A model generated the notes under the pieces. The model was not told the origin of the DNA. It saw nothing but the letters and a program-made list of their open reading frames with translations, and ran no database searches. A program made the position numbers and the translations under genes. DNA of 24,000 nucleotides, taken from assembly GCA_019322895.1 (NCBI GenBank), contig JAHWHZ010000003.1, positions 1 to 24,000 on the forward strand, read 5' to 3'. This document shows positions 5,409-24,000 of the stretch, one piece after another. Every line of letters begins with the position of its first letter. Within the stretch, counting starts at the first letter, position 1. Source of the stretch: Candidatus Woesearchaeota archaeon. Its GTDB lineage: Archaea > Nanobdellota > Nanobdellia > Woesearchaeales > ARS49.

Positions 5409-5828
5409 TTAATATCTGTTTGGCAATGGTTTTGGCGGTACGCAGCAGTATTCAACAGGTGCTATGCTTGCAGGTGCTTTTGAGCAGTACATCTTTCCGC
5501 GTTTCATCATTTCTGCTTCAGACGTCACTTCAAAAGTCTGGTCCACTCTTACTTGTCCGCGTCCAGCAATCCTGTCGCATGCAAATGTGTCTGCGTATTT
5601 CATGCCTGTTCCTTCACTGCCTCCGCTGCTGAAATATTCCTGGTATGTTGGCGTTTCGAAAGGAACCGCGATGTTCTGTCCAGGTGATGGTGTCTGTAGC
5701 ACTCCTCCTGGATATATAGACCGTACCACTTCGCCAGACATTGCAGTCTTGAACAGCAGCACCAGTCCTACAACTGCTATCACTGCAACTATGCCTAGAA
5801 TAATTAAATTAAGTCCTTTTGTTTCCAT
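5409..5828 (-). CDS. P8: small signal-anchored four-Cys protein, subtype B
   Basis: The preferred ATG gives METKGLNLIILGIVAVIAVVGLVLLFKTAMSGE, with an AAGAGGT SD 8 nt upstream. The track uses a TTG at 5837. C-terminus ACDRIAGRGQVRV...YCSKAPASIAPVEYCCVPP. Confidence 0.8.
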   Translation of the reverse strand: METKGLNLIILGIVAVIAVVGLVLLFKTAMSGEVVRSIYPGGVLQTPSPGQNIAVPFETPTYQEYFSSGGSEGTGMKYADTFACDRIAGRGQVRVDQTFEVTSEAEMMKRGKMYCSKAPASIAPVEYCCVPPKPLPNRY

Positions 5829-5843
5829 CTTATACAACCTCTT

Positions 5844-6362
5844 TTAACTATATTCTGTTGAGCTTGGCGGCGTGCAGCAGAAAGGTATTCCTGTTCCTTC
5901 TGGTGCTTTTACACATTTCTTGTTGTATAGTCGTCCTTCTTTTGCATCTGTGTATGTTGCGCCCCAGGTGTGTGTTATTGGAACCACGCCAAGTCTTGCA
6001 AGTGCATTGCAGATTCCTTTTTGAGAGACATACGCGAGTTCAGGTTCTCTTCTCCTGTTCCAGTCCCTGTATACAAGGCCTTCTCCTGTGCCGTATACTT
6101 GTGTTCCTTCATCTACTGTAACTCCTGGGTCTTCTACTCCTAAATATCCGTCTGTAAAGTCTGGCTTTTCAGTTACTCCGCCCTTGTATGTTCCCTGCGC
6201 ATATGGCCAAGGATTCTCCTGTACATTTGAGTATGTGTACGAAGGTGGGAAAACACGTACAACGTCTCCTGTCATAACACTCTTGAACAGCAGCACTAAT
6301 CCGACAACTGCGATTACAGCTACTATTCCTAGAATAATCATACTTAACTCTTTTTTTTCCAT
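5844..6362 (-). CDS. P9: small signal-anchored four-Cys protein, subtype A (first gene of the array)
   Basis: MEKKELSMIILGIVAVIAVVGLVLLFKSVMTGD; ENPWPY; KGICNALARLGVVPITHTWGATY...KCVKAPEGTGIPFCCTPP. GAGGTGA SD (complement of 6370-6376). Confidence 0.8.
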   Translation of the reverse strand: MEKKELSMIILGIVAVIAVVGLVLLFKSVMTGDVVRVFPPSYTYSNVQENPWPYAQGTYKGGVTEKPDFTDGYLGVEDPGVTVDEGTQVYGTGEGLVYRDWNRRREPELAYVSQKGICNALARLGVVPITHTWGATYTDAKEGRLYNKKCVKAPEGTGIPFCCTPPSSTEYS

Positions 6363-6424
6363 TTCGGTTTCACCTCTAACTCTTTTAGAGTTTTACCTCG
6401 TTTTTTATTAAATTCTGCTTTTCT

Positions 6425-6434
6425 TATATATAAA
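6425..6434 (-). promoter_or_regulatory. TATA box (minus strand, gaaaagTTTATATATA) driving the nine-gene array
   Basis: The reverse complement of 6423-6441 reads cgaaaagtttatatataag, the same BRE/TATA consensus as the other promoters in the window. It lies about 65 nt upstream of the P9 ATG, implying a 5' UTR that contains the SD. Confidence 0.45.
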
Positions 6435-6484
6435 CTTTTCGAGTTTTTATAGGTAAATTCGCCACTGGACAAACCCGCAAAAGA

Positions 6485-6515: not shown

Positions 6516-7271
6516 ATGAGAATCACCCCCGAATTGGCAGAAATGGCAGGCATTCATGCAGGAGATGGGTATTTACGCTATGCTGGCCGCAGAAAAGAAA
6601 TAGATATTAGTGGAGGAGTAGATGAAAAAGAGTATTACGATACTCACGTCATTCCATTGTTCAATAATTTTTTTGGTTTGGATATCCAAGGCAGACTATT
6701 CTTAACTAGAAACACATATGGCTTTGTGATTAGAAATAAGAGGATCATACAAATATTCAAGAAATTGGGGTTTCCTTCGGGAAAGAAATCAACTATTGTT
6801 AAATGCCCCACAATTATTCAGAACAGCAGTGATTTTGGTATTTTGCGGCGTTTTATTAGGGGGTATTTTGATACAGACGGCTCGCTGACTTTTGATAAAA
6901 AGATTTTTTTGCAAGATGCATTCAAAAAAACAAAGAATTTTTATCCGCGTTTGATGTTTACTTGTGCATCCAGGAATTTAACAGAAGATTTTTTAAAGAT
7001 TGTCCACAAATTAGGTTTTAAAGCAACTTGTTCAGTGCATTGCCCAAAGAAGACGACAGAAAGCATAAGATATAAGATGCAGTTAGTAGGAGTTAAGAAT
7101 TTAAACAAGTGGATAAAAGAAATAGGGACTAAGAATCCAACAAAGTATTCAAGATATTTAATTTGGAAAAAATTTGGTTTCTGCCCGCCAAATACGACAT
7201 ACAAGCAAAGGATTAATATATTAAAAGGCAATCTTAACCCTCATTCACTTTATGTAGGGCCTGTAGTCTAA
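6516..7271 (+). CDS. Free-standing double-motif LAGLIDADG homing-endonuclease-family protein
   Basis: Two LAGLIDADG motifs: LAEMAGIHAGDGYL (N-terminal) and ILRRFIRGYFDTDGSL (about 100 aa later). This is the architecture of monomeric enzymes such as I-DmoI. It is not embedded in an intron or intein within this window. Confidence 0.85.
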   Translation: MRITPELAEMAGIHAGDGYLRYAGRRKEIDISGGVDEKEYYDTHVIPLFNNFFGLDIQGRLFLTRNTYGFVIRNKRIIQIFKKLGFPSGKKSTIVKCPTIIQNSSDFGILRRFIRGYFDTDGSLTFDKKIFLQDAFKKTKNFYPRLMFTCASRNLTEDFLKIVHKLGFKATCSVHCPKKTTESIRYKMQLVGVKNLNKWIKEIGTKNPTKYSRYLIWKKFGFCPPNTTYKQRINILKGNLNPHSLYVGPVV

Positions 7272-7347
7272 TGGATAGGACGCGCGGCTTCGGAAAGCTA
7301 AGTCTTTAAGAAACCGTGAAATCGGGGTTCGAATCCCTGCAGGCCCA
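7257..7347 (+). tRNA. tRNA-Arg (anticodon UCG) with a 19-nt intron at the canonical 37/38 position (7294-7312)
   Basis: Hand fold. Acceptor GGGCCTG/CAGGCCC. D arm GTCT-AATGGATA-GGAC. Anticodon stem CGCGG/CCGTG with loop CU-UCG-G[intron]A. T arm CGGGG-TTCGAAT-CCCTG. Discriminator A; no encoded CCA. The intron region folds as a bulge-helix-bulge-like motif: CTT/AAG helix, CGG and AAA 3-nt bulges, AAAG/CTTT inner helix. Confidence 0.8.
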
Positions 7348-7356
7348 CTTTTTAAC

Positions 7357-8390: not shown

Positions 8391-8467
8391 TAAATCTTTT
8401 AAAGTATTTATTTTTTGTGTTCAGAGATACAAAAAATATTTATACTCATAAGAGAAAATCAGCTTTC

Positions 8468-9820
8468 ATGGATGCGGGCATTGTATATTCAAATGTTTCT
8501 ATCGACATCAAAAATACTTATATGATATACATAGGGGCATTTAAGTATCATAAAATTTGCAGGTTTTTCAGGAAGCCTTTGAGAAACAGGTATGGCAGGA
8601 AGGTTGAAATAATCTATGTCTTTGGAAGCTTTCCTCCGTCTTATTTTGAAGGCAAATATGTTGTATTGAACAGCAGATTAAAAAAGCTGAAAAATAACAG
8701 CAGCAATTGTTATTTTGACATCGGCTCTAAGAAACTCAACAAAGAAGCATCTAATTGCGATTATGTTAAAAAATTAATAAGAAAAATCCTGAAAAACCAG
8801 AAAGACCTTTTTATTTATCCGTTTAAGGACACCCCTGAATTGAATTTGCAGAAGCAGTTTGAAAATGTTCATCTGCTGGGGCCGAAGACAAACTTGTTTG
8901 CAAAATACAACAGCAAGCTTTTTCAGCACGAGCTGGCAGACGTCCTTGACATCCCCCAGCCAAGATGGTTTCTGGTTCACAGCAAGGCAGACCTGATAAC
9001 GATTTATTCTGACCATTTGAAGGGAAAAAAAGCATTTGTTTCCAAGCTCGAGGGTGCAGGCGGAAGCGGAAGCGCAGTCATTAATTCCAAGAAGGACATC
9101 TTGGACCATCCGCACATAAAGAAAGAGAACTGCAGGTATCTTATTTCTGAATTGGTCGACGTAAAAGTTTCGCCGTCGAGCGAGGCTATTGTCGCCAACA
9201 AGAACGAGATTTTCTTTAACGGCATCATGGACCAGATAATGAAAGGCCCGGATTATCTGGGTACTATCTATCCGTCGATAGTTAATGATAAACTCAAGAA
9301 ACTGATTGAACAATATACGATAAGAATAGGAAAATATATTGGAGAGCACGGCTACAGGGGCTTTTTCGGTGTTGATTTTATCGTGGACAAAAAAAACAGG
9401 CTTTATTTTGCAGAGATTAATCCAAGGACCTGCGGAAGCACATTGGAAAAAGTGTACATGCATGAAGTGACCAAGAAAAAGAATTTTCCTTCAATTCCAG
9501 AGCTTGAATTCAGGGCAGTCACCAGAAATACTTTTGGTTCATTGTCTTCTAAAAAAGTGAAGAAAGCGAATTTCAGCTGGGGCATCTTTAATGTCAAGGC
9601 AAGAAAAGGAAGAATGACCACAAGAGATGTTTTGCCGGAGTTTTCAGAACCAGCAGCATTCAAGAAATTAAAGACAACTATTCTTGATTTTCCCGGCAAA
9701 AATGTATTGTTTTATCATTCCGGCAGGCTCTGCAAGATATTGAGCGTAAAGCCGACAAGAAAAGAGGTCGAAGAAGAGCTGAAAGCAAGAAAAAAACAAG
9801 TCATTGATTATATTAAATAA
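8468..9820 (+). CDS. ATP-grasp fold enzyme (carboxylate-amine ligase type), specificity unknown
   Basis: AFVSKLEGAGGSGSAVI (Gly-rich loop) and GYRGFFGVDFIVDKKNRLYFAEINPRTCGS (the ATP-grasp Mg/ATP motif, E-x-N-P-R). The start is set at the ATG at 8468 (MDAGIVY), 22 nt after the TATA-like TTTATACT at 8439-8446. The track uses a GTG at 8417 that would include the promoter. Confidence 0.7.
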   Translation: MDAGIVYSNVSIDIKNTYMIYIGAFKYHKICRFFRKPLRNRYGRKVEIIYVFGSFPPSYFEGKYVVLNSRLKKLKNNSSNCYFDIGSKKLNKEASNCDYVKKLIRKILKNQKDLFIYPFKDTPELNLQKQFENVHLLGPKTNLFAKYNSKLFQHELADVLDIPQPRWFLVHSKADLITIYSDHLKGKKAFVSKLEGAGGSGSAVINSKKDILDHPHIKKENCRYLISELVDVKVSPSSEAIVANKNEIFFNGIMDQIMKGPDYLGTIYPSIVNDKLKKLIEQYTIRIGKYIGEHGYRGFFGVDFIVDKKNRLYFAEINPRTCGSTLEKVYMHEVTKKKNFPSIPELEFRAVTRNTFGSLSSKKVKKANFSWGIFNVKARKGRMTTRDVLPEFSEPAAFKKLKTTILDFPGKNVLFYHSGRLCKILSVKPTRKEVEEELKARKKQVIDYIK

Positions 9821-9827
9821 AGAAAAG

Positions 9828-9835
9828 TTTATAAA
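9828..9835 (+). promoter_or_regulatory. TATA box (agaaaagTTTATAAAc) for proS
   Basis: Consensus box 24 nt upstream of the ATG at 9859 (leaderless spacing). Confidence 0.5.
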
Positions 9836-9858
9836 CAATAATCAAAACTGATTCTCTT

Positions 9859-11304
9859 ATGCCTGAAGAAAAGAAAGACATTGGAATCACTGTAAAAAAA
9901 TCCAAGGATGTCAGTGACTGGTATCAGCAGGTAATCCTGAAAGCAGAGCTTGCAGAATATACTGAAGTTTCTGGCTGTATGGTCTTAAGGCCGAGATCTT
10001 ATGCAATGTGGGAAAAAGTAAAGGAATATTTCAACAAGGCCCTGAAAAAAAGAGGGATACCTAATGCTTATTTTCCTTTGTTTATTCCGGAAAAATTCCT
10101 GATGAAAGAGTCTGAGCACGTTGAGGGCTTTACCCCAGAGGTTGCTTGGGTGACTCATTCAGGAGATACAGAGCTTGCAGAAAGGCTTGCAGTGCGGCCT
10201 ACGTCTGAGACAATAATGTATGATTCTTACTCTAAATGGATAAGGTCTTATAGAGACTTACCGTTAAGGCTTAACCAGTGGGCAAATGTTGTTAGATGGG
10301 AATTCAAGAACCCGATTCCTTTCTTGAGGACCAGGGAATTTTTATGGCAGGAAGGGCACACTGTCTTTGCAACAAAAAAAGAAGCAGAGGCAGAAGTGCT
10401 GGATATTTTAGAAGTTTACAGAAAATTGTTTGAAGATTTGTTTGCAATTCCTATGATCAAGGGAAGAAAATCAGACAAAGAAAAGTTTGCAGGAGCTGTC
10501 TATACGACGAGCATAGAGACTTTTCTTCCGACTGGAAAAGCTATCCAGGGAGGCACTTCTCATTTTCTCGGGCAGAACTTTTCTAAGGCGTTTAATATTA
10601 AATTTTTAGATAAAGACGAGAAAAACCAGTACGGCTGGCAGAACTCCTGGGGAATATCGACGAGAAGCATCGGTGTCATGATCTTGTTCCACGGAGACGA
10701 CAAGGGCCTGGTGACTCCTCCGGCAGTCGCTCCAACACATGCGGTTGTGGTACCTATATATACTAAGGACAAGGAAAAGATATTGAAAGAAGCAAAGAAA
10801 ATAGCAGGCAGCATTAAAGGATTTGAGGTTATTCTCGACGACAGGGATGAATTCACTCCTGGCTATAAGTTCAGCGACTGGGAGATGAAAGGCATTCCTG
10901 TAAGGATTGAGATCGGCCCGAAAGATATTGAGAAAAAACAAGTGGTTATGGTAAGAAGAGATACAGGAGAAAAAGCATTTGTTCCAATAAAAGACATCAA
11001 TACAAAATTAAAATCACTTCTAAAAGATATCCAGAAGAATTTATTGGCAAAAGCAAAAAAGTCATTGAAAGAAAATATAATCGACGTAAAGAACTGGGAT
11101 GAATTCTTGAAGGCAATAAAAAACAAGAAGATGGCCAGAGCGCCTTGGTGCGAGGAAACTGTGTGCGAGGACTGGATAAAAGATAAATCCGGAGGGGCAA
11201 AAAGCATAAACATTCCTTTTGACCAGCCAAAGAAGATCCCTGCAAAATGCGCTCATTGCGGCAAGCAGGCAAAATGCATCGCTTTATTTGCCAAGAGTTA
11301 TTAG
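9859..11304 (+). CDS. proS: Prolyl-tRNA synthetase, archaeal/eukaryote-like class IIa type with C-terminal Zn-binding domain
   Basis: Collinear with archaeal ProRS: FSDWYQQV-type N-terminus, LRPTSET (motif 2 region), RWEFKNPIPFLRTREFLWQEGHT, GGTSHFLGQNFSKAF, GDDKGLVTPPAVAP, and a C-terminal ...APWCEE..C...CAHCG cysteine cluster. Confidence 0.92.
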   Translation: MPEEKKDIGITVKKSKDVSDWYQQVILKAELAEYTEVSGCMVLRPRSYAMWEKVKEYFNKALKKRGIPNAYFPLFIPEKFLMKESEHVEGFTPEVAWVTHSGDTELAERLAVRPTSETIMYDSYSKWIRSYRDLPLRLNQWANVVRWEFKNPIPFLRTREFLWQEGHTVFATKKEAEAEVLDILEVYRKLFEDLFAIPMIKGRKSDKEKFAGAVYTTSIETFLPTGKAIQGGTSHFLGQNFSKAFNIKFLDKDEKNQYGWQNSWGISTRSIGVMILFHGDDKGLVTPPAVAPTHAVVVPIYTKDKEKILKEAKKIAGSIKGFEVILDDRDEFTPGYKFSDWEMKGIPVRIEIGPKDIEKKQVVMVRRDTGEKAFVPIKDINTKLKSLLKDIQKNLLAKAKKSLKENIIDVKNWDEFLKAIKNKKMARAPWCEETVCEDWIKDKSGGAKSINIPFDQPKKIPAKCAHCGKQAKCIALFAKSY

Positions 11305-13761: not shown

Positions 13762-13866
13762 ATTTTTTTTAAATAACAGTTTTGCTTAAAAGAGTTTGTT
13801 ACCCCTCAAAAGAAAAAAATATGCTATGTCTGTTTTGCGGATAATATACAGCAAAAAATCGATATA

Positions 13867-13874
13867 TTTATATA
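13867..13874 (+). promoter_or_regulatory. TATA box (gatataTTTATATAtag) plus GGGGGAT Shine-Dalgarno (13913-13919) for the giant ORF
   Basis: The TATA box lies about 52 nt upstream of the TTG at 13926. The SD GGGGGAT lies 7-13 nt upstream of that TTG and has the same sequence as the albA SD. Confidence 0.45.
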
Positions 13875-13925
13875 TAGTTATTGCAAAATTCTTCTTAATT
13901 GGGTTGAAAAAAGGGGGATAGTGTA

Positions 13926-16900
13926 TTGACTAATAAGAAATACCTGTGGTTACTAGTATTGGTAGTGGCATTGTCCATTCTTATAGCCACTTTTGGCTCT
14001 GACTTAGTACCTACTGGCCTGACTGTTCTTAATAACACAAATGCAACAAACAACTCTGCTCCTGTGTGGGTTTCAAACACTACTTATTTCTCAATAGACA
14101 AGAACACAAATCTTGTCATGGATTTGAATGATTATTTTTCAGATCCTGAAAATGATTCAATGAGTTTTCTTGTCACTCAGCCAAGCAATTTCAGCGTCAA
14201 TGTCTCTGACAGCATTGCAGTGTTGACCCCTGACATGAATTTCCTTGGGACACGTTCTTTTTCTATCATTGCATCTGATGAATATTTAGTTTCAGACCAG
14301 GCAGTGCACGTGGATGTTGTTGAAACAGTGTATGATGAAACAAATGAGACAGAAGAAAATGCCACGCCTGAAGAGCCTGTTGAAATAAAAGATGAGAATG
14401 ACAAGTTCTATGGAAAAAAAGTCATAGATGAGCCTGATTTTGAGACGCATTTCACTTCAATTGAAAGCAACTTGACATATCTGAAAATAGTCTTTTATCA
14501 TGACTCAAATGAGTCCCAGGATATCTGGGTTGAAGGAGATGTGAATCATTCATTGAGTAAAAATTCAAGCAGTGCTTTTGAAAGCGTTGTCTTGATTGTT
14601 GAATTGATTGAAGGGATTGTTCCAAAGTTCAACTTGCATGTAGGTACTACTTCTGAGATATTTGAGTTCGGCAAAAATATTCCTGCAATTGAGATTGAAG
14701 ACGGCAATTATTCCTTGATTGATAGAGATGATGAGCTGTTGGATGTAGAGATAAACAAAGAAGATGTTTCTGCAGTGATTAAAGGAACAGACAGTGCATC
14801 AATCAATGCAAAAATAGGTGATGTAAATGATTCTGCTGTTAAAACAGATGTGTTTGCAGCAGACAATGTGTCAATGGAAGAGGCAGTCATCACACTTCCT
14901 GTTTCAGGAGAAATAAATGTCATCCTTGAATGTTCTGATTTTAATGTTAATACATTTATTTGTGAAGGCGATTGGCAAGAGACAGACATTCCTTTTATTT
15001 TAAACGGCTCTAACATCGTTTTTACAGTTGACCACTTCAGCGGTTATGGCGGCGGATTGATTACTGTGCTTAATGTGCAGTCTTATCCTACTCTGAATGG
15101 AAATTGGACAGTTGCATTTAACACGACTGGCTCAGAAAATTTAACGATAACCGGCGTCAATGGAACAAGCTTCTCAGTTGATCTGCAGTTCCTGGAATTA
15201 AGATGCGGCAATTTAACAGTTAATGCATCTTATGACGGCAGCAAGGTATTCTATGAAAATTATTCCTGCAATGAGACAAGTTATGAGACAAGCAAGGTCT
15301 TGACAGAAGGAAAGCACCACTTGAAGTTTGAGTTTGGAAATTCAACAGGCTATGCCCACAACTTAGTTGTTGCAGGTATAAGAAATGTCACAAGCGTGCT
15401 GAACTCAAGCATTTATGGAGAAAGCGGAGGAGACCATCTTGGCTATGCTTTGGCTCTTGGAGATTTTAATGGTGACGGCAGGGAAGATACTTTGTTTGGC
15501 GCTCTTGATGCAGATGATCCTGTGATTCCTCCTCCTTTTGGCACAAATGTCGGAAAAGTTTACTTGCGCTATGCTCCTATTCCAAGAAATGGAAGCTTCA
15601 ACATAAGCAGCATCACAAATATGACTTGGATTGGAGAAGCTAATGCTATTCCTCCATTTACTTCAAATGCAGGAGAATCTCTTGCAGTTGGTGATGTGAA
15701 TAATGATAATTTTGATGATTTTGTGATTGGCTCTCCTGGCTTTAATGTGTTGGGGCCGAATATAGGCAGGACATATCTTGTCTATGGAAGAAGCAGCATA
15801 ATGTCTGGAACAGCTTTGTTGCCGATAGGTTCTAATGCTACTTTTACAGGTGTTGCTGGCGGCAATGCCGGCCTTGAAGTTGCAATAGGTGACTTGAATG
15901 GAGATAATTTTGATGATGTCATAATCGGCGAGCCTTTTGCAGCAATGAATAAAGGAGCTGCTTATGTTTTCTTCGGGCCAATACCAGACGGCGCTGCCAG
16001 GACAGTTGCGCAGGCAAATGTCACAATAAATGGAACTGGAGACGGTTCATTTGGCTATACACTTGAGATTGGGGACATAAATGGAGATAATACTGATGAT
16101 TTGATTGTAGGTGCTTACACAAATGCAACTAATAGAGGAGCTGTTTATGCATTCTTTGGCAGCTGGACAGCTGGAACAACAATCAATGATACAAATGCTA
16201 ATGTGACTTGGTATGGAGAAGGCCCCACTAATTTCCTTGGATGGTCTCTTGCATCTGGTGATGATGTGAATGGAGACAATATTGATGATTTGCTTATTGG
16301 AGCGTATAATGCCACAGGAAATGGAAAAGTTTATCTGATTTATGGAAGTGCTTTGCTTTCAGGAACTTCTAATGTAAGCGCAGCTGCAACAAGCGCGTGG
16401 TTTGGTGAAAGCACAAGAGATTTCCTTGGCTGGAGCGTGGAATTAGATGACCAGAACAACGATACTCTTGCAGATGTGATGATGGGCGCAATTTACTATG
16501 ATACTCCTGTGCTCAATAATGCAGGAGCGATTTATTTTGATTATGCTCCTATTGCAGCAGGCACGGTTAATGTAAGCACTGTTAACGGCTCTCTTGTTGG
16601 TGTTGTAAACCTGCAGGAATTAGGTTATGCGATGGCTGCAGGAAGCTTTTATGGTATTGGCACAGATCACCATCTTTTTCCATTGATTGAGACAGGCGGT
16701 GTTTATTATGAGGGATTTCCTCCATCTCCACCGCCTCCTCCGATAGTTGTTCCAAGATGGAGGGGAAGCAGCCCTCCTGGAGGAAGAGACCCGCATACTG
16801 AGACTGATAATCCTCCTTGTGTTGCAATGGAGTTTGATGCAGAGCTTCTAGAAGACGGCACTTTAAAAGTTACTTTTGATTCAAATGTTCCTTCAACAGA

Positions 16901-19900
16901 CATTACTTTAGCAGCTTTTGTCGGAAATTTTGGCCAGCCAATAGGCAATACATGGGGCGGCAATCTCCGAGGAGCATTTGGCACAGATGCAGAAGGCTTG
17001 TCAACAGCAGAATTCAATATACCGCAGGATGCTTTAGATGCCGGGGACAACATCCGCTTAATCATGACAACACAGGCAGGAATAGAAGTCTGCGGCCAGA
17101 TAGACATGCCTATCCGCCCTTGTGAAGCTGCAGAACCAAGAACTCCTTTGGAATGGGGCCCTATTGATGAAGGAGATATAAATTTTTATGAACCTTTTGC
17201 CACAGCTTACTGGGATGATGTAAATGGAGAACTGCATGCAATCGGCTCTGTTCCGATGATTGTTGAAGGTAATGAACTTGTTCCTGATGTATCAAATCTT
17301 CCTACATCTGTCACATTTACTACCTGCATGGATGGAAGAGAAAAAACTTACACACTTCCATTGGATTATGCTGATAATAATTTTCAGATGTATCTTTTTC
17401 CAGAGACTCTTGCAAGCAAATGTGCATGGGAGGCAATGTCCACGTCAACAGGAGTTTCTATTGCTGACTTGATGCGAGGTTCTGGAGATACTGATTTTCT
17501 TACAGGAAGCGCAGTTGTTGATACAGGAATAACAGGAGCTGCTGCTGCTGGCAAAGACTGCAAATATCCTTGCGTCTATGAAAATCCTAAGACAGGCTAT
17601 TGCACAATACTTGCAATGGCTTCTTGTGTTGCACGAACAGATCCTTGCCCTGCAGGACAGAAATATCCTGGATGGTGCAAATGCGAATGTGTTGATGAAA
17701 CAAAAGATCAAAAAGAATACGAAGAAGCACTTGCTTTTGTTGAAGAACAGAAGAAATTAGAAAAAGAATCTGAAAGCGCAAAAGAAGCAGCTGCAGGAAG
17801 CACTTCTCAATGGATTCCTACGCAATTAGGCGGTGGTGCCGGCGTGACTTTATTCAAGACAAGCATGCCTGTTGCGCCTGAAATTGCAGAAAATAAAATG
17901 AGTTTCAAGTATAATTATCAAGGCGGAAGTGGTGGAAGCACTCCTAGCGGTGCATTGATTACTGGCTTTGCAGCGGCAGATGAGCAAAGCAGTGTGCCGA
18001 TAACTGGCATGGCTATATCCGGGCCTTCTGGCACACCATTAGGTGGAAGCAGCGGCCCTACTCCTGCTCCTGGCACTGCAGGTCAGGGCGGTGCTGGAAG
18101 AACGCCTTCACCAACTGGTTCTGTTCCAGTAGAAAAAAAAGGCACTGATGAAAAGAAAAAAAGGACATATGACTGCAATCCAAAGAATCCTGTGCCTAAA
18201 ACACCAGATACTCCTGCGCCAAAACCTGCCCCTCCTACTCCTACACCTAAACCAGAACCTAAACCTGAACCTGAACCTAAGCCTGCTCCAACGCCCGGTC
18301 CTACTTATGGCCCGCCGTATCCTGTTCCTACTCCTAAGCCTGGCCCTGTTACTTATGGTCCTCCTGCTCCTACTCCAAAACCAACATATAAATGGATTAA
18401 GACACCCGACGGCTGGCAATATGTGCCAGTTACCCCAACGCCCACACCGACTCCTACTCCGACTCCTACTCCTGGTCCAGGTGAAGCTGAGGCAGTAACG
18501 CCGTATATTGCTTCAGACAGGTTTATTCCAACAGGCATGTGGGATGGAACTATCTGGGAAAATACTTGGTTTAATTTCAGGGCAGAAGGAGAAACTTCTA
18601 ATCCAGAATGTGCATTTATTGATTGGCAGTCTTATACTGCTCCAGAAGTTACTGGTGCTGCAGGCATTGATGCAATAACAGGAACAACAGTTGCAGGCAG
18701 TCTTGCAAGCTCTTGCGGTGCAGGAGTTAATGATAACCAGGGAGCAGGAATGAGCAGGCCGACATCAGGCAACACTCCTGCCACTGCTTTTGCAGAAATG
18801 TTTGATCTTAGCACTCACCCAGGAACTCACGATTATGACGAGCCACAAACTTGCAAAGATTGTCCTTATCTGTGTCCTATGCCAGATATTCCAGAGATAA
18901 ACCAGCCAGGTGATCCTGGCGGTGGCGGTCCTGGAGGCGGCGGCGGAGGCGGCGGCCCTGGCGGTGGCGGTGGCGGCGGCGAAGGCGGCCTCTGCGGCTT
19001 AGGAGCAGAATCAGCTGGTGTTTTGAACAGTGTTTCAGACGATGCTGATGAAAGACTGCAGTACATGGAAAGCAGGATTGCTGAGGACGGTGCTGTTAAC
19101 TCATTGAAACAAGGCATTTCAAATCTAGGAGATGCTGTTTCTGCAGGCGTTGCAGAGCATGCAGCTAATTTTGATGGTTCAAGGCTGCCTGGTTCATTAG
19201 GCCCTCCTGCTAGTAGTGGAAGCGAAGGTTCTTTCCAAGCACTTACAGGAATGGCAGTCGGAGCCCAGGCATTTATTCCGCAGCAGGACATTATTCCAGG
19301 AGAAGCAGTTTCTGTTGGAGATGGACAGGCTCTAGATATGCGCGGGGATATTGTTGTTGGTGAAGGTGCTGGTGAAGCAAGAGATGTTATTACAGAACCT
19401 GCTGCAGAAGACGAACCAGGTGATGCTGATGAAAGAGAAGAGATAATCACAGACGGCTTTATTGAGATATTCAATCCATTAGGCAAAGATATCCGCCTGG
19501 AAGGCTATGAATTATGGGATGCAACAGGAGAGATAAAGATTCCTTTCCCAAAAGGAGCTGAAATCAAGTCAGGAGAGTATCAAGTTATTGCATTCAGTGA
19601 CTTGTTTGAAACCAATTTCCAGGTAGAGCCAGATTATATTTTCAAGGGATTCTCTATTGAGAAATTTAAAGGAACAATTGCTTTGATGTACACTGGCGAG
19701 CCAAGCTTGAAATATGTTGATTATGTGAGGTATGGTGAAAAAAGCAAGCCGATGTTTATGAACGGAGACACTCCTCCGATAAACCAGGACTTGTTGCCTC
19801 TTAATGATATTGAAAGAAAAACAATAATCATTTCTGAAGTTACTGTTGATTATGGAAAAAGAATAGTCTTTGTTGAATTGACTAATGTTGGTGAAGAAGA

Positions 19901-22900
19901 CTATGATCTTGCAGGACACAAGCTTTCTGTGTATGCAGGTGACGATTATTACGAAGGGGTGGTCGGCGAGAGCGCATCTGTCGTCGCTGGTGCACCATCT
20001 GCAGGAATGCCTGCAGGAGCAGCACTAGCTGCTAAAGCACCAATGACTGCGATTGCTACAACTGCAGTGCAAGCCACAGGTACTCAGGCAATTGTTACAG
20101 GTGTCTCGTCCCCCCCTACTTTTGCTACATCAGAGATGCTTGTTGAAGGAGAAGGTGTTGCAAGCGCAATAACTGCCGGTGCTGTTGTTGAAGAGCTTTC
20201 AGCTGTTGCTGCAGTAAGCCCTGCTCAAACTGCTGTAAGCACTGTTGGAATAACAACAGGCTCTACAGGAGTTGCCAGTGCAATTACTGCTGGTGCAATG
20301 GCTGCAGCACAAGCTGGTCAAGCCAGTGCACTTACTGCATCCTCCCCGACTTTACTTGCTCCTGGCAAGTCAATTGTGCTGAGATTCAGTGCAGCTGGCA
20401 AGAGATGGGAAGCTCCCTATCCTTATTACACAGACGGCGAGCCAGTTGAAGAAGACAACATAATATGCTTTGAAGGAAAAGATCCTGAGACAGGAGAATG
20501 CCTTGGTCCTGTCATGGCTTCTTCTGAAATGATATCTCCTGTTGCAGGCGCAGAAGTTGCAATTGCAGCAGAGCAGGAGATTCCAGGTGCATTCATGCAA
20601 TGCCCTGAGTGTTCTGTAGGCCAAAAACCAAATCCACTTACTTGCGAATGCATTCCAATAACAAAAGAAAAGAAAACGCTTGTGCAATGCAAGGTAATCC
20701 TTGAATGTTCTGAAGGAAAAGTTCCTGATATGTATAATTGTAATTGCATAACTCCGCAGGAAAGGCAGAAACAATATGAAAACTGGCACAAGACCGGCGG
20801 AACGATGATTACAGGGCAGGCAATCACTGAAACACTGACAACTGAAATAGCATCTGTTGGAACAGCTGCTCCTCAAGGAATCATCACTGCAAAAAAATCA
20901 GTGATGGAGCTTGCTGCAATGCCGTCAACTGCCTTGCTTGCAAAAAGCCCAGTCAGCACCTTGACAACAGGCAAGCGCGAGATATGCTATGAAGGCATTG
21001 ATTCTGAGACAGGATTGTGCAACAGTGTTCCGATTGCAGAAGATACCCCTGTGCTTGACATGAGTGATATGGAAGATGCCAAGCATGTAGAGCATGGCGG
21101 TGTTACAACCTTGCTTGAAGTTATTCTTGAGAAAAATGGCGAGCAGGTTGATTATTTTGTGCGCGATGAAGGCAAGATACCTTATGCAGGAATAAAATCA
21201 TACAAGAGCCGAACAACTCTTGCAGGATCTCCTGTTGACCAGAGGCCTGATGACTTTGTTGAAGGGGCTCCTTCCTTAGGTGTTGTTGAAGGATTAGAGG
21301 CTTCTGAAGTTGCTAAATGGATAATCAATCCAAAAGGGCAGACGCTCATTGAATTTGAGGATGAATATCCAGAAGAAGAGGATGTTGAGATTTGCTTTGA
21401 AGGAATGGATCCAGAGACAGGAGAATGCCTTGGTGCCGTGCTTCCAGAGGATCTTGATGAATTGATTATTGAAGAAGAGGTTTCTGAAGAGATTCCTAAG
21501 TTTGGTGACAGATGCCAGCAGAAATGCGAATTTGGCTGCACTGATTATACTTGCTGTGAATGCAATCCTGCCCCGCCTCCAGAGCCGGTAGAAGAAACAA
21601 TTAGTGATAATACATGTGCCAACTTTTGCCCGTATGGTTATGTTGGAAATACTTGCGAATGCGCATCTTCTCCTGGAGGAGATGATATTACTGGCGGTGC
21701 AATCTTGTCCACGCTTCAAACAGAATTTGCGCAGACAGTTGCTGCACAGCCGCACATTTCAACAACTGTGCTGGAACAGCCTGTAGGCATGCCTGTTACA
21801 ACTGTTATTGAGGCAAGTCCTGTTGAAAACGCAGGTGTTGCTCTTGACCATCACTTGCTTGCATCTTCAATAACTCCTGGAGCCACAAGTGAAGAGATTC
21901 AAGAGACTGCAGAAGAGCTGATGTTTGAAGATCCTTGCGACACTATCTTGAGGCAGGCTGCTGAAAGAGCTGCGGCAGCAGGAGAAGAAGGAACAGAACT
22001 CTTGTCCCGCAAAGAAAAGATTGATGAATTTGATGTTATTGAAGAAATAAATGCAGTGCTGGATGAATTAAGGGCGCAGGGAATTGATGTTGATGATCCT
22101 GATGTGTACAAGCAGTATGCTGGCTATGTGCACATGAAAGTTGTTGAAAAATTATTTGAGTATGTTGAAGATATTGATTTCAAGGTGATTGATTACAAAG
22201 CAGACTTTGACAAGACCCTTTATGCAAACTTTGAATACGGGCTCAAGGAAAAAGAAGAAGACGAAGAGTTTGTTGTTTACTTCAAGCACAATGCTGATTT
22301 GAAAGACAAGATTATAAACATAGATGAATTTGTTGTTGCAGACAAGTTCAAGGGAGATGATATTGAGAAAAAGATTTTTGAGATAGACAAGGAATTGTAT
22401 TTCAGGTTTGGAAAAGACTATAAGATTTCTGCAAGCGCGACACTGCCTTTGAACTCTAACTTGTTTGTTGTCAAGTTCGGCACTGTGCCGTCTGAAAATG
22501 CTCTCAGGCTGACTGCATCAACTTTTGAGAACGCAATTTATGGTGCAGGCGATGCTTTTACCCCTAAAAAATTGGAAGGCTTTGCAGACCCTATGGCAAA
22601 TACAGAGCTTATCAGGCTTGCAATGAGAGACTTGAGATATGATGAAGAAGAGATGAGCAAGCTGATTGACTTGATTGAAGAATATCCTCCAGTAGAAGAG
22701 GAAGAAGTAAGCCCTATTACAGAGCGTGCAAAAGAGCCTTATGAAGAAATGCTTGATGAAGACTTCCAGAGGATGGTTGATGCTTGCCAGGATGTGAGAA
22801 ATGCTTTTGCGGATAATAACCGCGCAATTTACGGCGATCCTATCATAAGTTTCCAAAGAATTGATTATGATGAAGGAATAGAATATGAAAAGCCGCTTCC

Positions 22901-24000
22901 AAAGAAAAGGATAATACCTGGCTTGGGTATTACTCTTGCAAGGATGCTTGAAGGCCCTTCTGCTGAATTGCCAAGTGCAGCTGCTCCAGGCCCTTCTGTT
23001 GGATGGAGAGGAGGCAGTGCTGGCGGAACTGTTTCAGCGCAGGCACAGGCAATACAGTCAAGATTATCTGCTCGCGGCAGGGGCGTAAGCGCAGGAATGG
23101 GCGCAGGACAAGCACTGACTGCGTTTGCAGTTGCTGACATAACTGGAGCGCAATTTTCTGCAGTACAGCAGGTGAGAACAGGCGGCAGCGGAGCTGCAGC
23201 CAGAGGCGGAGGAGCAACACCTTCTATTTCTCCTCAAGAGCTTGAGCAGTTGCAGCTGCGGTTGCGGACAAAGGAATCTTATCTAAATAAGTTAACTTTT
23301 GCGCAGAGAAAAAGATGGGATGCATTGCACCTGACACAGAATGAACTTTATGAAAAATTAAGAAAAGGGATTGACACTGACGAAGCACTTGCAGAGCTTT
23401 ACAAGATTGACCAGGAATTGACAGCTCTTTGTCCTGAAGCAAGAAAACTTGACCAGGATAGGGTGGATAGGCTTCCTGGCAGCGGCGCTTCAAAAGGCGG
23501 CGGTCCAGAGGCAGCTTCATCTGATTACTTGTCTATCCCTGACATAATGGCAGAGCATGGCGAGACCCAGAGAGAGAATGAGCAGTGCTTTATTGATTAT
23601 TGTGCTGATGGCGTTTGCTATCCATTATGTCCTGAAATTCACATCTTATTGACTGAAATCTTTCCAGGCACTGTGAAGATTGATCCTGAAAAGACTGAAG
23701 GCCAGCCTATTACACCAAAGCCTGTTGAAATAAAGGTTCCAAAGCCGGCAGTGCCAGAATACTGGGGGCCAACAGGCCCTGCAACTGTTCCCGGCATGCC
23801 GGGCTATGCTGAAACAGGCGGATATGCTGCGACAACAGGTCCTGCTGGAGAGAGTGATGTGCCGATAACCGGCGCGCAGGTTGCTTTAAGCCAGTTTGCT
23901 GCTGAAGCAGTCTTTGCAGGAGAAGCATCTAATCCTGCAATAACTACTGCAGGCAGTCTTGAAGACATATCGCCAGTAGTCACTGGCGGTACTGCAACAG
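13926..24000 (+). CDS. Giant mosaic cell-surface protein, 3'-partial (more than 3,350 codons inside the window); absent from the ORF track
   Basis: I translated frame 3 (codon starts at positions divisible by 3) by hand from the TTG at 13926 (in-frame TGA at 13905-13907) to nt 23999 and met no stop. The N-terminus (L/M)TNKKYLWLLVLVVALSILIATFGSDLVPTGL is a signal anchor. Recognisable extracellular domains follow (see sub-features). All minus-strand track ORFs from 13895 to 23928 overlap it and are antisense shadows. Confidence 0.9.
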   Translation, partial: MTNKKYLWLLVLVVALSILIATFGSDLVPTGLTVLNNTNATNNSAPVWVSNTTYFSIDKNTNLVMDLNDYFSDPENDSMSFLVTQPSNFSVNVSDSIAVLTPDMNFLGTRSFSIIASDEYLVSDQAVHVDVVETVYDETNETEENATPEEPVEIKDENDKFYGKKVIDEPDFETHFTSIESNLTYLKIVFYHDSNESQDIWVEGDVNHSLSKNSSSAFESVVLIVELIEGIVPKFNLHVGTTSEIFEFGKNIPAIEIEDGNYSLIDRDDELLDVEINKEDVSAVIKGTDSASINAKIGDVNDSAVKTDVFAADNVSMEEAVITLPVSGEINVILECSDFNVNTFICEGDWQETDIPFILNGSNIVFTVDHFSGYGGGLITVLNVQSYPTLNGNWTVAFNTTGSENLTITGVNGTSFSVDLQFLELRCGNLTVNASYDGSKVFYENYSCNETSYETSKVLTEGKHHLKFEFGNSTGYAHNLVVAGIRNVTSVLNSSIYGESGGDHLGYALALGDFNGDGREDTLFGALDADDPVIPPPFGTNVGKVYLRYAPIPRNGSFNISSITNMTWIGEANAIPPFTSNAGESLAVGDVNNDNFDDFVIGSPGFNVLGPNIGRTYLVYGRSSIMSGTALLPIGSNATFTGVAGGNAGLEVAIGDLNGDNFDDVIIGEPFAAMNKGAAYVFFGPIPDGAARTVAQANVTINGTGDGSFGYTLEIGDINGDNTDDLIVGAYTNATNRGAVYAFFGSWTAGTTINDTNANVTWYGEGPTNFLGWSLASGDDVNGDNIDDLLIGAYNATGNGKVYLIYGSALLSGTSNVSAAATSAWFGESTRDFLGWSVELDDQNNDTLADVMMGAIYYDTPVLNNAGAIYFDYAPIAAGTVNVSTVNGSLVGVVNLQELGYAMAAGSFYGIGTDHHLFPLIETGGVYYEGFPPSPPPPPIVVPRWRGSSPPGGRDPHTETDNPPCVAMEFDAELLEDGTLKVTFDSNVPSTDITLAAFVGNFGQPIGNTWGGNLRGAFGTDAEGLSTAEFNIPQDALDAGDNIRLIMTTQAGIEVCGQIDMPIRPCEAAEPRTPLEWGPIDEGDINFYEPFATAYWDDVNGELHAIGSVPMIVEGNELVPDVSNLPTSVTFTTCMDGREKTYTLPLDYADNNFQMYLFPETLASKCAWEAMSTSTGVSIADLMRGSGDTDFLTGSAVVDTGITGAAAAGKDCKYPCVYENPKTGYCTILAMASCVARTDPCPAGQKYPGWCKCECVDETKDQKEYEEALAFVEEQKKLEKESESAKEAAAGSTSQWIPTQLGGGAGVTLFKTSMPVAPEIAENKMSFKYNYQGGSGGSTPSGALITGFAAADEQSSVPITGMAISGPSGTPLGGSSGPTPAPGTAGQGGAGRTPSPTGSVPVEKKGTDEKKKRTYDCNPKNPVPKTPDTPAPKPAPPTPTPKPEPKPEPEPKPAPTPGPTYGPPYPVPTPKPGPVTYGPPAPTPKPTYKWIKTPDGWQYVPVTPTPTPTPTPTPTPGPGEAEAVTPYIASDRFIPTGMWDGTIWENTWFNFRAEGETSNPECAFIDWQSYTAPEVTGAAGIDAITGTTVAGSLASSCGAGVNDNQGAGMSRPTSGNTPATAFAEMFDLSTHPGTHDYDEPQTCKDCPYLCPMPDIPEINQPGDPGGGGPGGGGGGGGPGGGGGGGEGGLCGLGAESAGVLNSVSDDADERLQYMESRIAEDGAVNSLKQGISNLGDAVSAGVAEHAANFDGSRLPGSLGPPASSGSEGSFQALTGMAVGAQAFIPQQDIIPGEAVSVGDGQALDMRGDIVVGEGAGEARDVITEPAAEDEPGDADEREEIITDGFIEIFNPLGKDIRLEGYELWDATGEIKIPFPKGAEIKSGEYQVIAFSDLFETNFQVEPDYIFKGFSIEKFKGTIALMYTGEPSLKYVDYVRYGEKSKPMFMNGDTPPINQDLLPLNDIERKTIIISEVTVDYGKRIVFVELTNVGEEDYDLAGHKLSVYAGDDYYEGVVGESASVVAGAPSAGMPAGAALAAKAPMTAIATTAVQATGTQAIVTGVSSPPTFATSEMLVEGEGVASAITAGAVVEELSAVAAVSPAQTAVSTVGITTGSTGVASAITAGAMAAAQAGQASALTASSPTLLAPGKSIVLRFSAAGKRWEAPYPYYTDGEPVEEDNIICFEGKDPETGECLGPVMASSEMISPVAGAEVAIAAEQEIPGAFMQCPECSVGQKPNPLTCECIPITKEKKTLVQCKVILECSEGKVPDMYNCNCITPQERQKQYENWHKTGGTMITGQAITETLTTEIASVGTAAPQGIITAKKSVMELAAMPSTALLAKSPVSTLTTGKREICYEGIDSETGLCNSVPIAEDTPVLDMSDMEDAKHVEHGGVTTLLEVILEKNGEQVDYFVRDEGKIPYAGIKSYKSRTTLAGSPVDQRPDDFVEGAPSLGVVEGLEASEVAKWIINPKGQTLIEFEDEYPEEEDVEICFEGMDPETGECLGAVLPEDLDELIIEEEVSEEIPKFGDRCQQKCEFGCTDYTCCECNPAPPPEPVEETISDNTCANFCPYGYVGNTCECASSPGGDDITGGAILSTLQTEFAQTVAAQPHISTTVLEQPVGMPVTTVIEASPVENAGVALDHHLLASSITPGATSEEIQETAEELMFEDPCDTILRQAAERAAAAGEEGTELLSRKEKIDEFDVIEEINAVLDELRAQGIDVDDPDVYKQYAGYVHMKVVEKLFEYVEDIDFKVIDYKADFDKTLYANFEYGLKEKEEDEEFVVYFKHNADLKDKIINIDEFVVADKFKGDDIEKKIFEIDKELYFRFGKDYKISASATLPLNSNLFVVKFGTVPSENALRLTASTFENAIYGAGDAFTPKKLEGFADPMANTELIRLAMRDLRYDEEEMSKLIDLIEEYPPVEEEEVSPITERAKEPYEEMLDEDFQRMVDACQDVRNAFADNNRAIYGDPIISFQRIDYDEGIEYEKPLPKKRIIPGLGITLARMLEGPSAELPSAAAPGPSVGWRGGSAGGTVSAQAQAIQSRLSARGRGVSAGMGAGQALTAFAVADITGAQFSAVQQVRTGGSGAAARGGGATPSISPQELEQLQLRLRTKESYLNKLTFAQRKRWDALHLTQNELYEKLRKGIDTDEALAELYKIDQELTALCPEARKLDQDRVDRLPGSGASKGGGPEAASSDYLSIPDIMAEHGETQRENEQCFIDYCADGVCYPLCPEIHILLTEIFPGTVKIDPEKTEGQPITPKPVEIKVPKPAVPEYWGPTGPATVPGMPGYAETGGYAATTGPAGESDVPITGAQVALSQFAAEAVFAGEASNPAITTAGSLEDISPVVTGGTAT
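14058..14324 (+). other. Ig/cadherin-like domain within the giant ORF
   Basis: APVWVSNTTYFSIDKNTNLVMDLNDYFSDPENDSMSFLVTQPSNFSVNVSDSIAVLTPDMNFLGTRSFSIIASDEYLVSDQAVHVDVVE follows the AP-x-W...L-x-x-YF-x-DP-[DE]-x-D-x-[LM]-x-F...G-x-x-x-x-x-[IV]-x-A-x-D pattern of bacterial/archaeal cadherin-like (dystroglycan-type/He_PIG-like) repeats. Confidence 0.55.
15417..16718 (+). other. Seven FG-GAP repeats (integrin-alpha-like beta-propeller) within the giant ORF
   Basis: Seven successive blades. Blades 1-5 carry the Ca-binding loop D-x-N-x-D-x-x-x-D: LALGDFNGDGREDTLFGA, LAVGDVNNDNFDDFVIGSP, VAIGDLNGDNFDDVIIGEP, LEIGDINGDNTDDLIVGAY and LASGDDVNGDNIDDLLIGAY. Blade 6 (VELDDQNNDTLADVMMGAIY) and blade 7 (YAMAAGSFYGIGTDHHL) are degenerate. 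Blades 1-6 end in G-x-(V/A)Y(L/V/A)(F/I/V/R)(Y/F/D)(G/Y); blade 7 ends in GGVYYEG. Confidence 0.85.
18180..18480 (+). repeat. Pro-rich linker with in-frame short tandem repeats (PKPEPKPEPEPKP; PTPTPTPTPTPTP)
   Basis: cctaaaccagaacctaaacctgaacctgaacctaagcct (18246-18284) and acgcccacaccgactcctactccgactcctactcct (18438-18473). This is coding low-complexity sequence, not a CRISPR array. Confidence 0.85.
18909..18989 (+). repeat. In-frame GGN triplet tract encoding GDPGGGGPGGGGGGGGPGGGGGGGEGG
   Basis: 27 consecutive codons, of which 21 are GGN (Gly) and 3 CCT (Pro). Locally very GC-rich. Its antisense generates the spurious poly-Pro ORF 18866..19486. Confidence 0.9.
19443..19745 (+). other. Lamin-tail-domain (LTD)-like Ig-fold domain within the giant ORF
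   Basis: IITDGFIEIFNPLGKDIRLEGYELWDATGEIKIPFPKGAEIKSGEYQVIAFSD...GTIALMYTGEPSLKYVDYVRYG follows the prokaryotic LTD pattern ([EF]-[FW]-[IV]-E-[LI]-[YF]-N-P...[IV]-x-L-x-G-[WY]-x-L...[FY]-x-[FI]-P...L-x-x-G-x-[YF]-x-V...D-x-V-x-Y). Confidence 0.6.

Follow-up and report, generated by a model that had tools for sequence, protein, structure and literature searches.

A giant candidate surface protein of a Woesearchaeota archaeon, with a conserved propeller-and-hydrolase frame and a variable middle region

The DNA analysed here is a 24,000-nt stretch of contig JAHWHZ010000003.1 (GenBank assembly GCA_019322895.1, positions 1 to 24,000), referred to below as the window. Its right-hand part, 13926-24000, is the 5′ four-fifths of one protein-coding Woesearchaeota gene; very probably the gene is real and single and encodes a giant surface-anchored mosaic protein built as described below. 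The preliminary description of this DNA had claimed a TTG-initiated open reading frame (ORF) of more than 3,350 codons, open in frame 3 from a TGA at 13905-13907 to the window edge, and translation bore this out. The TGA is followed by 3,364 sense codons without a further stop up to 23999, and the ORF counted from the TTG at 13926 comprises 3,358 codons; a stop inside 13926-23999, named beforehand as evidence that would speak against the gene, was not found. The other five frames of the same region contain 86-315 stops each, with a longest open run of 212 codons, and the chance of the open frame given the base composition was estimated at ln P ~ −211. The ORF list of the window leaves out ORFs that run off the source DNA, which agrees with the earlier explanation that this one was omitted for want of a stop. 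For 13.9-24 kb the list holds only short antisense or off-frame ORFs, and these are by-products of the long sense frame.

Our reading of the sequence agreed with the Shine-Dalgarno-like GGGGGAT and the TATA consensus TTTATATATA that had been proposed for this gene. The TTG, earlier called the only plausible start, is the first ATG, GTG or TTG codon past the stop, the later candidates lie inside the N-terminal hydrophobic helix, and the ATG starts of five orthologs (P0004, P0005, P0011, P0019 and L003) are found 4-12 residues before the corresponding helix. The start at 13926 is therefore plausible. A/T-rich motifs of the AAAGTTTATATATA type were seen upstream of the giant gene (13853-13890), of an array of small paralogs (6411-6448) and of the prolyl-tRNA synthetase gene (ProRS; 9811-9841), and this shared motif is likely the B recognition element (BRE)/TATA consensus of the organism. 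A scan for sigma-70 promoters and terminators was empty; the sigma-70 model does not apply to archaea.

The source of the DNA is a Woesearchaeota (DPANN) archaeon. Genes for Alba, an archaeal/eukaryotic-type ProRS, an intron-containing tRNA and a LAGLIDADG protein are present in the window, and the ProRS is 81-88% identical to those of several Candidatus Woesearchaeota metagenome-assembled genomes (MAGs), a few of which carry an automated 'Methanosarcinales' label. Alba, the archaeal-type ProRS, the intron tRNA and ProRS identities of 87-88% to Woesearchaeota MAGs agree with the small-genome (DPANN) archaeon that had been expected as the host of the gene.

The frame could be followed past the window on an independent JGI metagenome contig (L001; Ga0309837_135026, sample 3300028895, 5,805 bp). 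L001 is 100% identical to window 19684-24000 over ~4.2 kb apart from a 122-bp deletion, and it continues for 1,610 bp past the window edge. The composite ORF has at least 3,895 codons and is still open. Orthologs with a visible stop extend 185-228 residues beyond the last aligned position, so the full product is probably ~4,100 aa long. Thus the rest of the gene, which had been sought for its stop and C-terminal signal, was obtained as far as this extension, and the stop was not reached. A scan with the C-terminal peptide against genome and metagenome contig collections that held neither L001 nor the contig of the window gave no relative.

The deletion in L001 removes window positions 22077-22198, which is no multiple of three, and breaks the frame at L001 2393/2394; the called protein P0001 ends there, and the next called gene starts 90 nt later. 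No microhomology was found at the junction, and the RNA structure of the 122-bp segment is not unusual (z = −0.23). The peptide encoded by the segment (QGIDVDDPDVYKQYAGYVHMKVVEKLFEYV...) aligns residue for residue with the Woesearchaeota protein P0003 (DGIDVDNPDVFKKQLGNIHVRLVERLFESV...), which argues that the window version is ancestral and intact; L001 would carry either a strain-level lesion or an assembly error. A frameshift had also been named as evidence against the gene: one does exist, in L001, and the conservation of the deleted peptide indicates that the window version is the intact one. The possibility that the 122 bp are an intron or a mobile mini-element was rejected, as the segment is in-frame conserved coding sequence with neither unusual RNA structure nor microhomology, and its removal breaks the frame.

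The head of the predicted protein begins with a hydrophobic helix, which reaches a 19-aa Kyte-Doolittle mean of 2.48 and is the sole such segment in the 3,895 aa; the orthologs have a corresponding helix followed by PTG[LM]. Behind it lies an immunoglobulin (Ig)-like domain, matched by PF17963 (Big_9) at aa 43-125 (E=6.5e-5, 24.2 bits, cutoff 23.6), which is also present in L003 and P0004. The propeller that follows further on was matched by FG-GAP (PF01839) with 114 bits against a cutoff of 22.1 over 5 stretches and by FG-GAP_3 with 37.8 bits against 26.9. It forms repeat family D3 of our analysis, is conserved in all orthologs, and contains six canonical D-x-[DN]-x-[DN]-G-x-x-x-D loops at aa 513, 590, 656, 717, 780 and 842 (spacing 61-77 aa) together with a degenerate seventh blade near aa 905; the count of seven blades comes from the sequence and not from a structure model. 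The signal anchor, the Ig/cadherin-like domain and the seven-bladed FG-GAP propeller of the preliminary description were thus all recovered, the second of them as Big_9, with PF17892 (Cadherin_5) remaining below its cutoff.

Between the Ig-like domain and the propeller lie about 350 residues, modules A-C, for which neither Pfam nor NCBIfam has a model. The AlphaFold2 model of aa 130-505 is all-beta with a mean predicted local distance difference test score (pLDDT) of 89.4, and on this model the modules are three tandem Ig-like beta-sandwiches. The best Foldseek matches included titin Ig arrays, the S-layer proteins SbsC and EA1, and the adhesins SiiE and SdrG. An exhaustive HMMER search with modules A-C returned 1,181 clusters at E<=1e-3, of which 119 reached E<=1e-30, many of the relatives being parts of proteins of 2,000-6,800 aa (the largest 6,807 aa), and local comparison showed module C to be the most widespread of the three.

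Asn-glycosylation sequons (N-x-S/T) are concentrated in this head: 42 were counted in the first 1,000 residues against 13.1 +/- 3.2 expected, a roughly 3-fold excess, and none in residues 1001-3500 against 7.8 +/- 2.6 expected. The polarity, high from the N-terminus through the propeller, is kept in the four complete orthologs (P0004, P0005, P0008 and L011). The window protein is also acidic, with 575 D+E versus 245 K+R. The sequon excess, the signal helix, the Ig-like, propeller and lamin tail domains and the C-terminal transmembrane (TM) anchor of the orthologs are all in line with the surface location proposed earlier, and together these features suggest a giant, acidic, glycosylation-prone surface protein with an adhesin-like head.

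Behind the propeller, P0006 aligns with aa 154-1211 at 42% identity, and the conserved beta-type segment ends at aa 1211. The stalk that follows contains a poly-Gly tract at nt 18915-18998 (repeat family D5). The lamin tail domain (LTD; PF00932) scored 47.3 bits (cutoff 34.3), with two stretches at about aa 1830-2010, and this region is colinear with residues 13-285 of P0003 (38-39% identity). The ICFEG/DPETGEC units begin at nt 20463, 20982 and 21390 and form repeat family D6 (68-88% nucleotide identity); the second unit and the domain after it align with P0003 residues 324-439, and C-x-C modules of similar kind occur in P0004. The LTD pair, the three ICFEG/DPETG units with C-x-C modules and the poly-Gly tract had been noticed by eye, and Pfam and the repeat analysis found them again. 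The acidic helical domain has aligned counterparts in P0003 (residues 448-835, 33%) and at the C-terminus of P0006; it belongs to no known family, and a PDB profile search found no relative, the integrin matches in that search stemming from propeller columns contributed by P0006. The last segment of the window is matched by P0003 residues 873-995. NCBIfam models, run on three segments of the window, gave nothing above cutoff.

The 537-aa extension supplied by L001 comprises a beta domain and a lipase-like alpha/beta-hydrolase. Abhydrolase_6 matched this extension with 32.4 bits against a cutoff of 26.3, and PGAP1 and DUF676 stayed below their cutoffs. The motifs HG, H-S-x-G-G, N-D-G-I-V and H-T are invariant in alignments of 4 and of 7 orthologs, which suggests an intact Ser-Asp-His triad with an oxyanion-hole motif in an active-looking lipase/esterase-like domain. 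By sequence, no solved relative is closer than the esterase BlEst2 (E = 1e-8). A model of the ortholog P0002 showed a preceding beta-rich domain, the hydrolase core and three C-terminal TM helices, and a Foldseek search with it placed Proteus, Streptomyces and Acinetobacter lipases and BlEst2 at the top, with a probability of 1.0 to 4hs9, 6wpy, 5h6g and 9g8u.

The complete orthologs end in a Cys knot (CxCGxGxCGEGE...CPxDC), three hydrophobic helices with basic loops between them, and a Lys-rich tail. By the positive-inside rule, this C-terminus fits an N-out, C-in anchor, and by analogy the window protein may be anchored in the membrane by three C-terminal TM helices. Of the two C-terminal signals considered beforehand, PGF-CTERM or a TM anchor, the orthologs thus have the second, as a multi-pass anchor, but not the first: the complete orthologs contain no PGF motif, and the NCBIfam search of the three window segments gave no PGF-CTERM match.

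Comparison of the orthologs revealed a family with a constant frame, in the order signal helix, Ig-like domain, modules A-C, FG-GAP propeller, variable middle, beta domain, lipase-like hydrolase, Cys knot, three TM helices and Lys-rich tail. Both ends are common to the window protein and L003, P0004, P0005, P0008, P0036, P0072 and L011, while the middles differ in length and content. Identity to L003, P0004, P0005, P0008 and P0002 is 50-52% at the N-terminal end and 37-50% in the C-terminal block. The complete orthologs have 1,832-2,909 aa (L011, 2,909, at L011:5310-14036; P0004, 2,578; P0005, 2,414; P0008, 1,832). The middle of the window protein is colinear with P0003, whereas L011 has type I phosphodiesterase/sulfatase-like and NosD/pectate-lyase-type beta-helix modules instead. 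P0002 (MBN1645185.1) and P0003 (MBN1645207.1) overlap and come from one MAG (GCA_016929895.1), in which they are split across contigs; they are pieces of one giant ortholog. Orthologs of the giant protein are therefore already in public databases under partial names, P0002 being called 'alpha/beta hydrolase, partial' and P0003 'lamin tail domain-containing protein, partial'.

In L003, L005 and L007 a syntenic ortholog follows ProRS and three small genes. The gene order of the window (ProRS, three small genes, giant gene) is found again in L003 and L005 and in part in L006-L008, which suggests vertical inheritance of the giant gene in this clade. With both conserved ends in order and this synteny, the window gene can be placed by analogy in the Woesearchaeota frame family, its Cys knot and TM helices being supplied by the orthologs. 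The open frame, the independent assembly and the syntenic and complete orthologs all agree with the single giant gene of the preliminary description. That description had not recognised the domain combination, and the frame of FG-GAP, LTD and lipase-like domains is indeed without a description in Pfam, NCBIfam or the searchable literature.

Table 1. Coordinates of the features of the giant gene and of the genes that follow its orthologs (window positions unless a locus is named).
Feature	Coordinates	Strand	Basis
Promoter-like region with TTTATATATA (13867-13876), ~50 nt upstream of the start	13853..13890	+	direct sequence reading
Shine-Dalgarno-like GGGGGAT (13913-13919) and TTG start (13926-13928); in-frame TGA (13905-13907) just upstream	13913..13928	+	translation, sequence reading
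Hydrophobic helix aa 5-25, signal peptide or signal anchor, then P-T-G-L-T	13938..14000	+	Kyte-Doolittle
Ig-like domain Big_9 (Cadherin_5-like), aa 43-126	14052..14303	+	Pfam
Three tandem beta-sandwich modules (predicted): A (aa 154-256), B (~260/305-378), C (379-481)	14385..15368	+	AlphaFold2, local comparison
Seven-bladed FG-GAP (integrin-alpha-type) propeller, aa ~488-940, six Ca-binding-type loops	15387..16745	+	Pfam, motif, repeats
Post-propeller region, aa 941-1260: Pro-rich hinge, beta-type segment, Cys-rich module (CKYPC...CKCEC)	16746..17705	+	translation, Cys counts
Low-complexity stalk: Pro/Thr/Lys-rich and Gly-rich linkers, several [ILVM]TG.A motifs	17706..19022	+	composition per 250 aa
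Conserved helical segment, then two LTD domains, aa 1700-2009	19023..19952	+	Pfam
Ala/Thr/Gly-rich segment, then three ICFEG-x-DPETG-x-C units alternating with small C-x-C disulfide-knot-like modules	19953..21725	+	repeat analysis
Acidic, mainly helical conserved domain, aa 2640-2990; spans the 122 bp (22077-22198) that L001 lacks	21843..22895	+	alignment
Ala/Gly-rich segment, charged coiled-coil-like stretch, C-x-x-C segment (CFIDYCADGVCYPLC), Pro-rich linker; ORF leaves the window	22896..24000	+	translation, alignment
Internal [ILVM]-T-G-x-[AVTI] at aa 1192, 1202, 1345, 1359, 1575, 1584, 1773, 2295, 2588, 3352	~17499-23981		
Downstream signal-peptide gene, L082	L082:2394-10622		
Downstream signal-peptide gene, L083	L083:11452-12426		
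Downstream signal-peptide gene, L084	L084:11641-12183		
Downstream signal-peptide gene, L011	L011 ~14075-14190		

In all orthologs with a visible stop, the next gene encodes another signal-peptide protein, and in three of the four loci the ortholog stop overlaps it in an ATGA. The downstream products of L082, L083 and L084 all begin with signal peptides and have no Pfam match. Those of L083 and L084 (L083b and L084b) are 46% identical to each other; that of L082 is 2,742 aa long and has no detectable similarity to the window protein. By analogy, a second large secreted partner probably follows the window gene too.

GC content at third codon positions (GC3) is uniform along the giant gene, at 0.28-0.36. 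In the neighbouring ProRS and ATP-grasp genes (8417-11304) GC3 is higher, at 0.44-0.45, and total GC reaches 0.52 in the Gly/Pro-rich part of the giant gene. A mosaic of foreign DNA was found to be unsupported, since GC3 is uniform and the raised GC of the middle reflects its Gly/Ala/Pro-rich composition. The gene was also considered as the target of a diversity-generating retroelement, and this was rejected, with no reverse transcriptase among the window ORFs scanned and no long near-identical repeat pair involving the gene.

Elsewhere in the window, nine tandem paralogous ORFs of 116-172 aa occupy 2427-6362 on the minus strand, with pairwise identities of 25-59%. Each product has a hydrophobic N-terminal helix, then x-T-G-[A/E/D], and at the C-terminal end a 'CC' motif (e.g. 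EYCCVPPKP). None matched Pfam; judging by the sequences, the array appears to be an expanded family of secreted Cys proteins of small size. The intron-containing tRNA gene (92 nt, 7257-7348, plus strand; Rfam 55.4 bits), for which ARAGORN gave no anticodon, starts inside the last codons of the LAGLIDADG-domain ORF at 6516-7271 (plus strand). At the left end, a phage-integrase-family fragment (176-895, plus strand) and a ParB-N/HTH protein (892-1377, minus strand) are convergent. The match of the fragment to the integrase profile begins only at profile position 29, and 176-1377 is possibly the edge of an integrated element.

That giant surface proteins are proposed for host contact in small-genome archaea, as the preliminary description had stated, agrees with work on DPANN archaea (PMC10266531). 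SPEARE giant surface proteins are documented in Nanohaloarchaeota (e.g. SVXNc_0300, 9,409 aa; Ca. Nanohaloarchaeum antarcticus; PMC10266531, PMC6642349), and for Nanobdella and other Nanoarchaeota, Ig-rich glycosylated surface proteins have been proposed as interaction factors (bioRxiv 10.1101/2023.10.27.564410; PMC6142677). SPEARE proteins contain a VirB4/TraG-like ATPase domain, with a VirB4-family ATPase gene directly downstream (PMC10266531). The window protein resembles them in its very large size, its small-genome DPANN source, its Sec-type N-terminus, its organism-specific, variable character and its proposed part in host interaction, and in an acidic, mostly extracellular body rich in Ig-like folds that would be membrane-anchored; it differs in its FG-GAP propeller, LTDs and lipase-like hydrolase, a distinction drawn from features and not from direct sequence comparison. 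Pfam gave no AAA/VirB4 match in the 3,358 aa of the window protein, in the 537-aa extension or in the orthologs, and no secretion ATPase gene was visible beside the orthologs. Repeat analysis and AlphaFold showed only about four N-terminal Ig-like modules and no long tandem Ig/fibronectin arrays. Membership in SPEARE was therefore rejected for lack of the ATPase domain and of long Ig arrays. The protein is best filed in the same class, in outline, as the giant DPANN surface proteins, with a frame that is itself undescribed in the literature searched.

The head also recalls that of integrin alpha subunits: of its seven FG-GAP blades, six contain D-x-[DN]-x-[DN]-G-x-x-x-D loops, and it presents an extracellular ligand-binding-type module on what would be a membrane-anchored stalk; the family profile matches the integrin alpha5/alphaV/alphaIIb propellers at E ~6e-6. 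However, the window family is without a beta-subunit partner, thigh/calf domains or a cytoplasmic GFFKR motif, and a set of three TM helices forms its anchor. FG-GAP proteins are common among prokaryotes and are no integrin orthologs. Like the giant Ca-dependent adhesins of bacteria (SiiE, LapA/RTX and SdrG-type MSCRAMMs), the predicted surface protein is extended, acidic and rich in beta-sandwiches and would have its binding region at the distal end, and SiiE and SdrG match modules A-C. Those adhesins, however, are built of dozens of near-identical BIg repeats and rely on type I secretion (T1SS) export or a sortase anchor, whereas the window protein is a non-repetitive, enzyme-bearing mosaic, predicted to be Sec-dependent and TM-anchored.

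The hydrolase shares with family I lipases and Bacillus licheniformis BlEst2 (6wpx/6wpy, 4hs9, 5h6g, 9g8u) the alpha/beta core, HG, H-S-x-G-G, the Asp in N-D-G-I-V and a C-terminal His. It differs from them in that identity is only 16-21%, with target TM-scores (template modelling) of 0.49-0.59, and in that it is here the membrane-proximal module of a ~4,100-aa protein and follows a family-specific beta domain. The dockerin-type giants of Omnitrophota are bacterial proteins of >10,000 aa with dockerin and discoidin domains (bioRxiv 10.1101/2023.11.21.568195). The window protein resembles them in its ultra-small organism, extracellular N-terminal bulk, C-terminal TM and intracellular part, and attachment and degradative domains that hidden Markov models detect only partly, so that sub-regions call for structure prediction; they are bacterial, larger and have another domain set, and the likeness is one of format and not shown homology.

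The best reading of these data, which we favour with some reserve, is that the gene encodes a giant glycosylated adhesin-enzyme for cell or substrate contact; this judgement blends the reality of the gene with the mechanism. For the adhesin-plus-esterase contact mechanism taken by itself, our confidence is tentative and falls slightly short of even. The product would enter the Sec pathway via its N-terminal hydrophobic helix and would be held in the membrane of its own cell by three C-terminal TM helices and a Lys-rich cytoplasmic tail, as in the orthologs. The glycosylated head (~1,000 residues) might then bind a ligand on a partner cell or a polymeric substrate in a Ca-dependent manner, like integrin-alpha propellers and giant bacterial adhesins. 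The lineage-variable stalk (~2,500 residues) would set the reach and carry exchangeable passenger modules, and the membrane-proximal hydrolase would cleave ester bonds of partner-derived envelope or lipid material once the surfaces meet. The secreted partner protein encoded directly downstream would probably be co-made. A role of the giant protein in host contact is what we infer.

Several points weigh against this reading. The location and activity of the protein are predicted from the sequence, and its host is a putative one. The anchor, which would lie in the last ~200 codons beyond the end of L001, is taken from the orthologs, and the deletion in L001 means that at least one assembly or strain is without an intact protein. 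Should the N-terminal helix stay uncleaved, both ends would be anchored and the protein would be looped. The model of the hydrolase is of moderate quality only (mean pLDDT 59.5, core 70-92), and the hydrolase would sit beside the membrane of its own cell, distant from the presumed binding head. Archaeal ether lipids are not cleavable by a lipase or esterase, so the substrate is doubtful if the partner is archaeal.

Other explanations have to be weighed against the adhesin-enzyme. We consider it scarcely credible that the frame is an assembly artefact, fused from several genes or strains, or a decaying pseudogene, and this idea is largely refuted already. Low-complexity tracts such as the poly-Gly stretch are hard to assemble and L001 does carry a frameshifting indel without microhomology, but chimeras are not expected to give a stop-free 10-kb frame, the N-to-C order is alike in complete orthologs from other assemblies, and GC3 is uniform; outside the indel L001 is fully identical, and the 122 bp encode a conserved peptide. 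A surface-tethered enzyme scaffold for polymer scavenging, resembling a cellulosome or a nuclease/esterase array, in which the propeller and Ig-like domains bind substrate and the passengers face the environment, appears unlikely. In its favour, the frame of L011 carries the phosphodiesterase/sulfatase-like domain and beta-helices mentioned above, an active-looking esterase is predicted in all orthologs, and LTD domains accompany extracellular hydrolases in prokaryotes (Pfam description and general knowledge). However, Pfam and the NCBIfam search of the three segments recognised no catalytic domain in the 2,500-aa middle of the window protein, a glycan-rich Ig/propeller head is typical of adhesins, and the DPANN archaea studied to date depend on cell contact (PMC10266531, PMC11291902).

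Less likely still is a structural part of the archaeon's envelope, for example a stalk or spacer that is associated with the S-layer and connects it to the membrane; the hydrolase would then maintain the cell's own envelope. The matches of modules A-C to SbsC and EA1, the heavy N-glycosylation potential with a membrane anchor, and the conserved single-copy syntenic position would all suit it, but S-layer proteins normally have 40-200 kDa and form lattices, and a fast-evolving, lineage-variable middle with a Ca-type propeller head fits an interaction protein better. The T-G motifs raise the idea of a polyprotein, a precursor cut at internal [ILVM]-T-G-x-A motifs into separate surface or secreted proteins, with the giant ORF as a delivery format. 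Internally, [ILVM]-T-G-x-[AVTI] was counted 10 times, where 1.7 were expected and none of 300 shuffles gave more than 7. Just behind the N-terminal helix it is present in 23 of 114 related giants (background 2.6%) and also in the nine small secreted paralogs; at such N-termini it seems to fit a signal-peptidase −3/−1 site. No hydrophobic helix lies ahead of the internal motifs, however, and signal peptidase I requires one. The enrichment is weak in the orthologs (2 against 0.8 expected in P0004, 4 against 0.8 in P0005), and neither Pfam nor the NCBIfam search of the three segments found a protease domain. We judge the polyprotein to be improbable, a shade more so than the envelope protein.

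A bolder form of the contact mechanism, which we regard as a long shot and rank just behind the polyprotein, is a lipid- or envelope-harvesting machine. The head would dock on a partner, perhaps an ester-lipid bacterium, the stalk would draw the envelopes together, the lipase-like domain would free acyl or lipid material for uptake at the membrane of the symbiont itself, the I-T-G-x-A sites would release passengers, and the giant secreted protein encoded downstream, translationally coupled, would be a second component. If this were true, the harvested lipid would feed an organism unable to make its own lipids.

To our knowledge, no Woesearchaeota archaeon has a characterised contact factor, and the ways in which uncultivated DPANN archaea recognise other cells and exploit them are poorly understood. 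Giants of this kind are obscured by gene callers and by fragmented assemblies and appear as 'partial' entries. The adhesin-enzyme family described here offers an invariant head and hydrolase frame, fast-changing passengers, a beta-sandwich set of more than 1,100 clusters that is absent from Pfam, and a coupled downstream gene. It provides head domains for binding screens and a hydrolase for substrate assays, and it may serve as a marker for variation in host range among Woesearchaeota.

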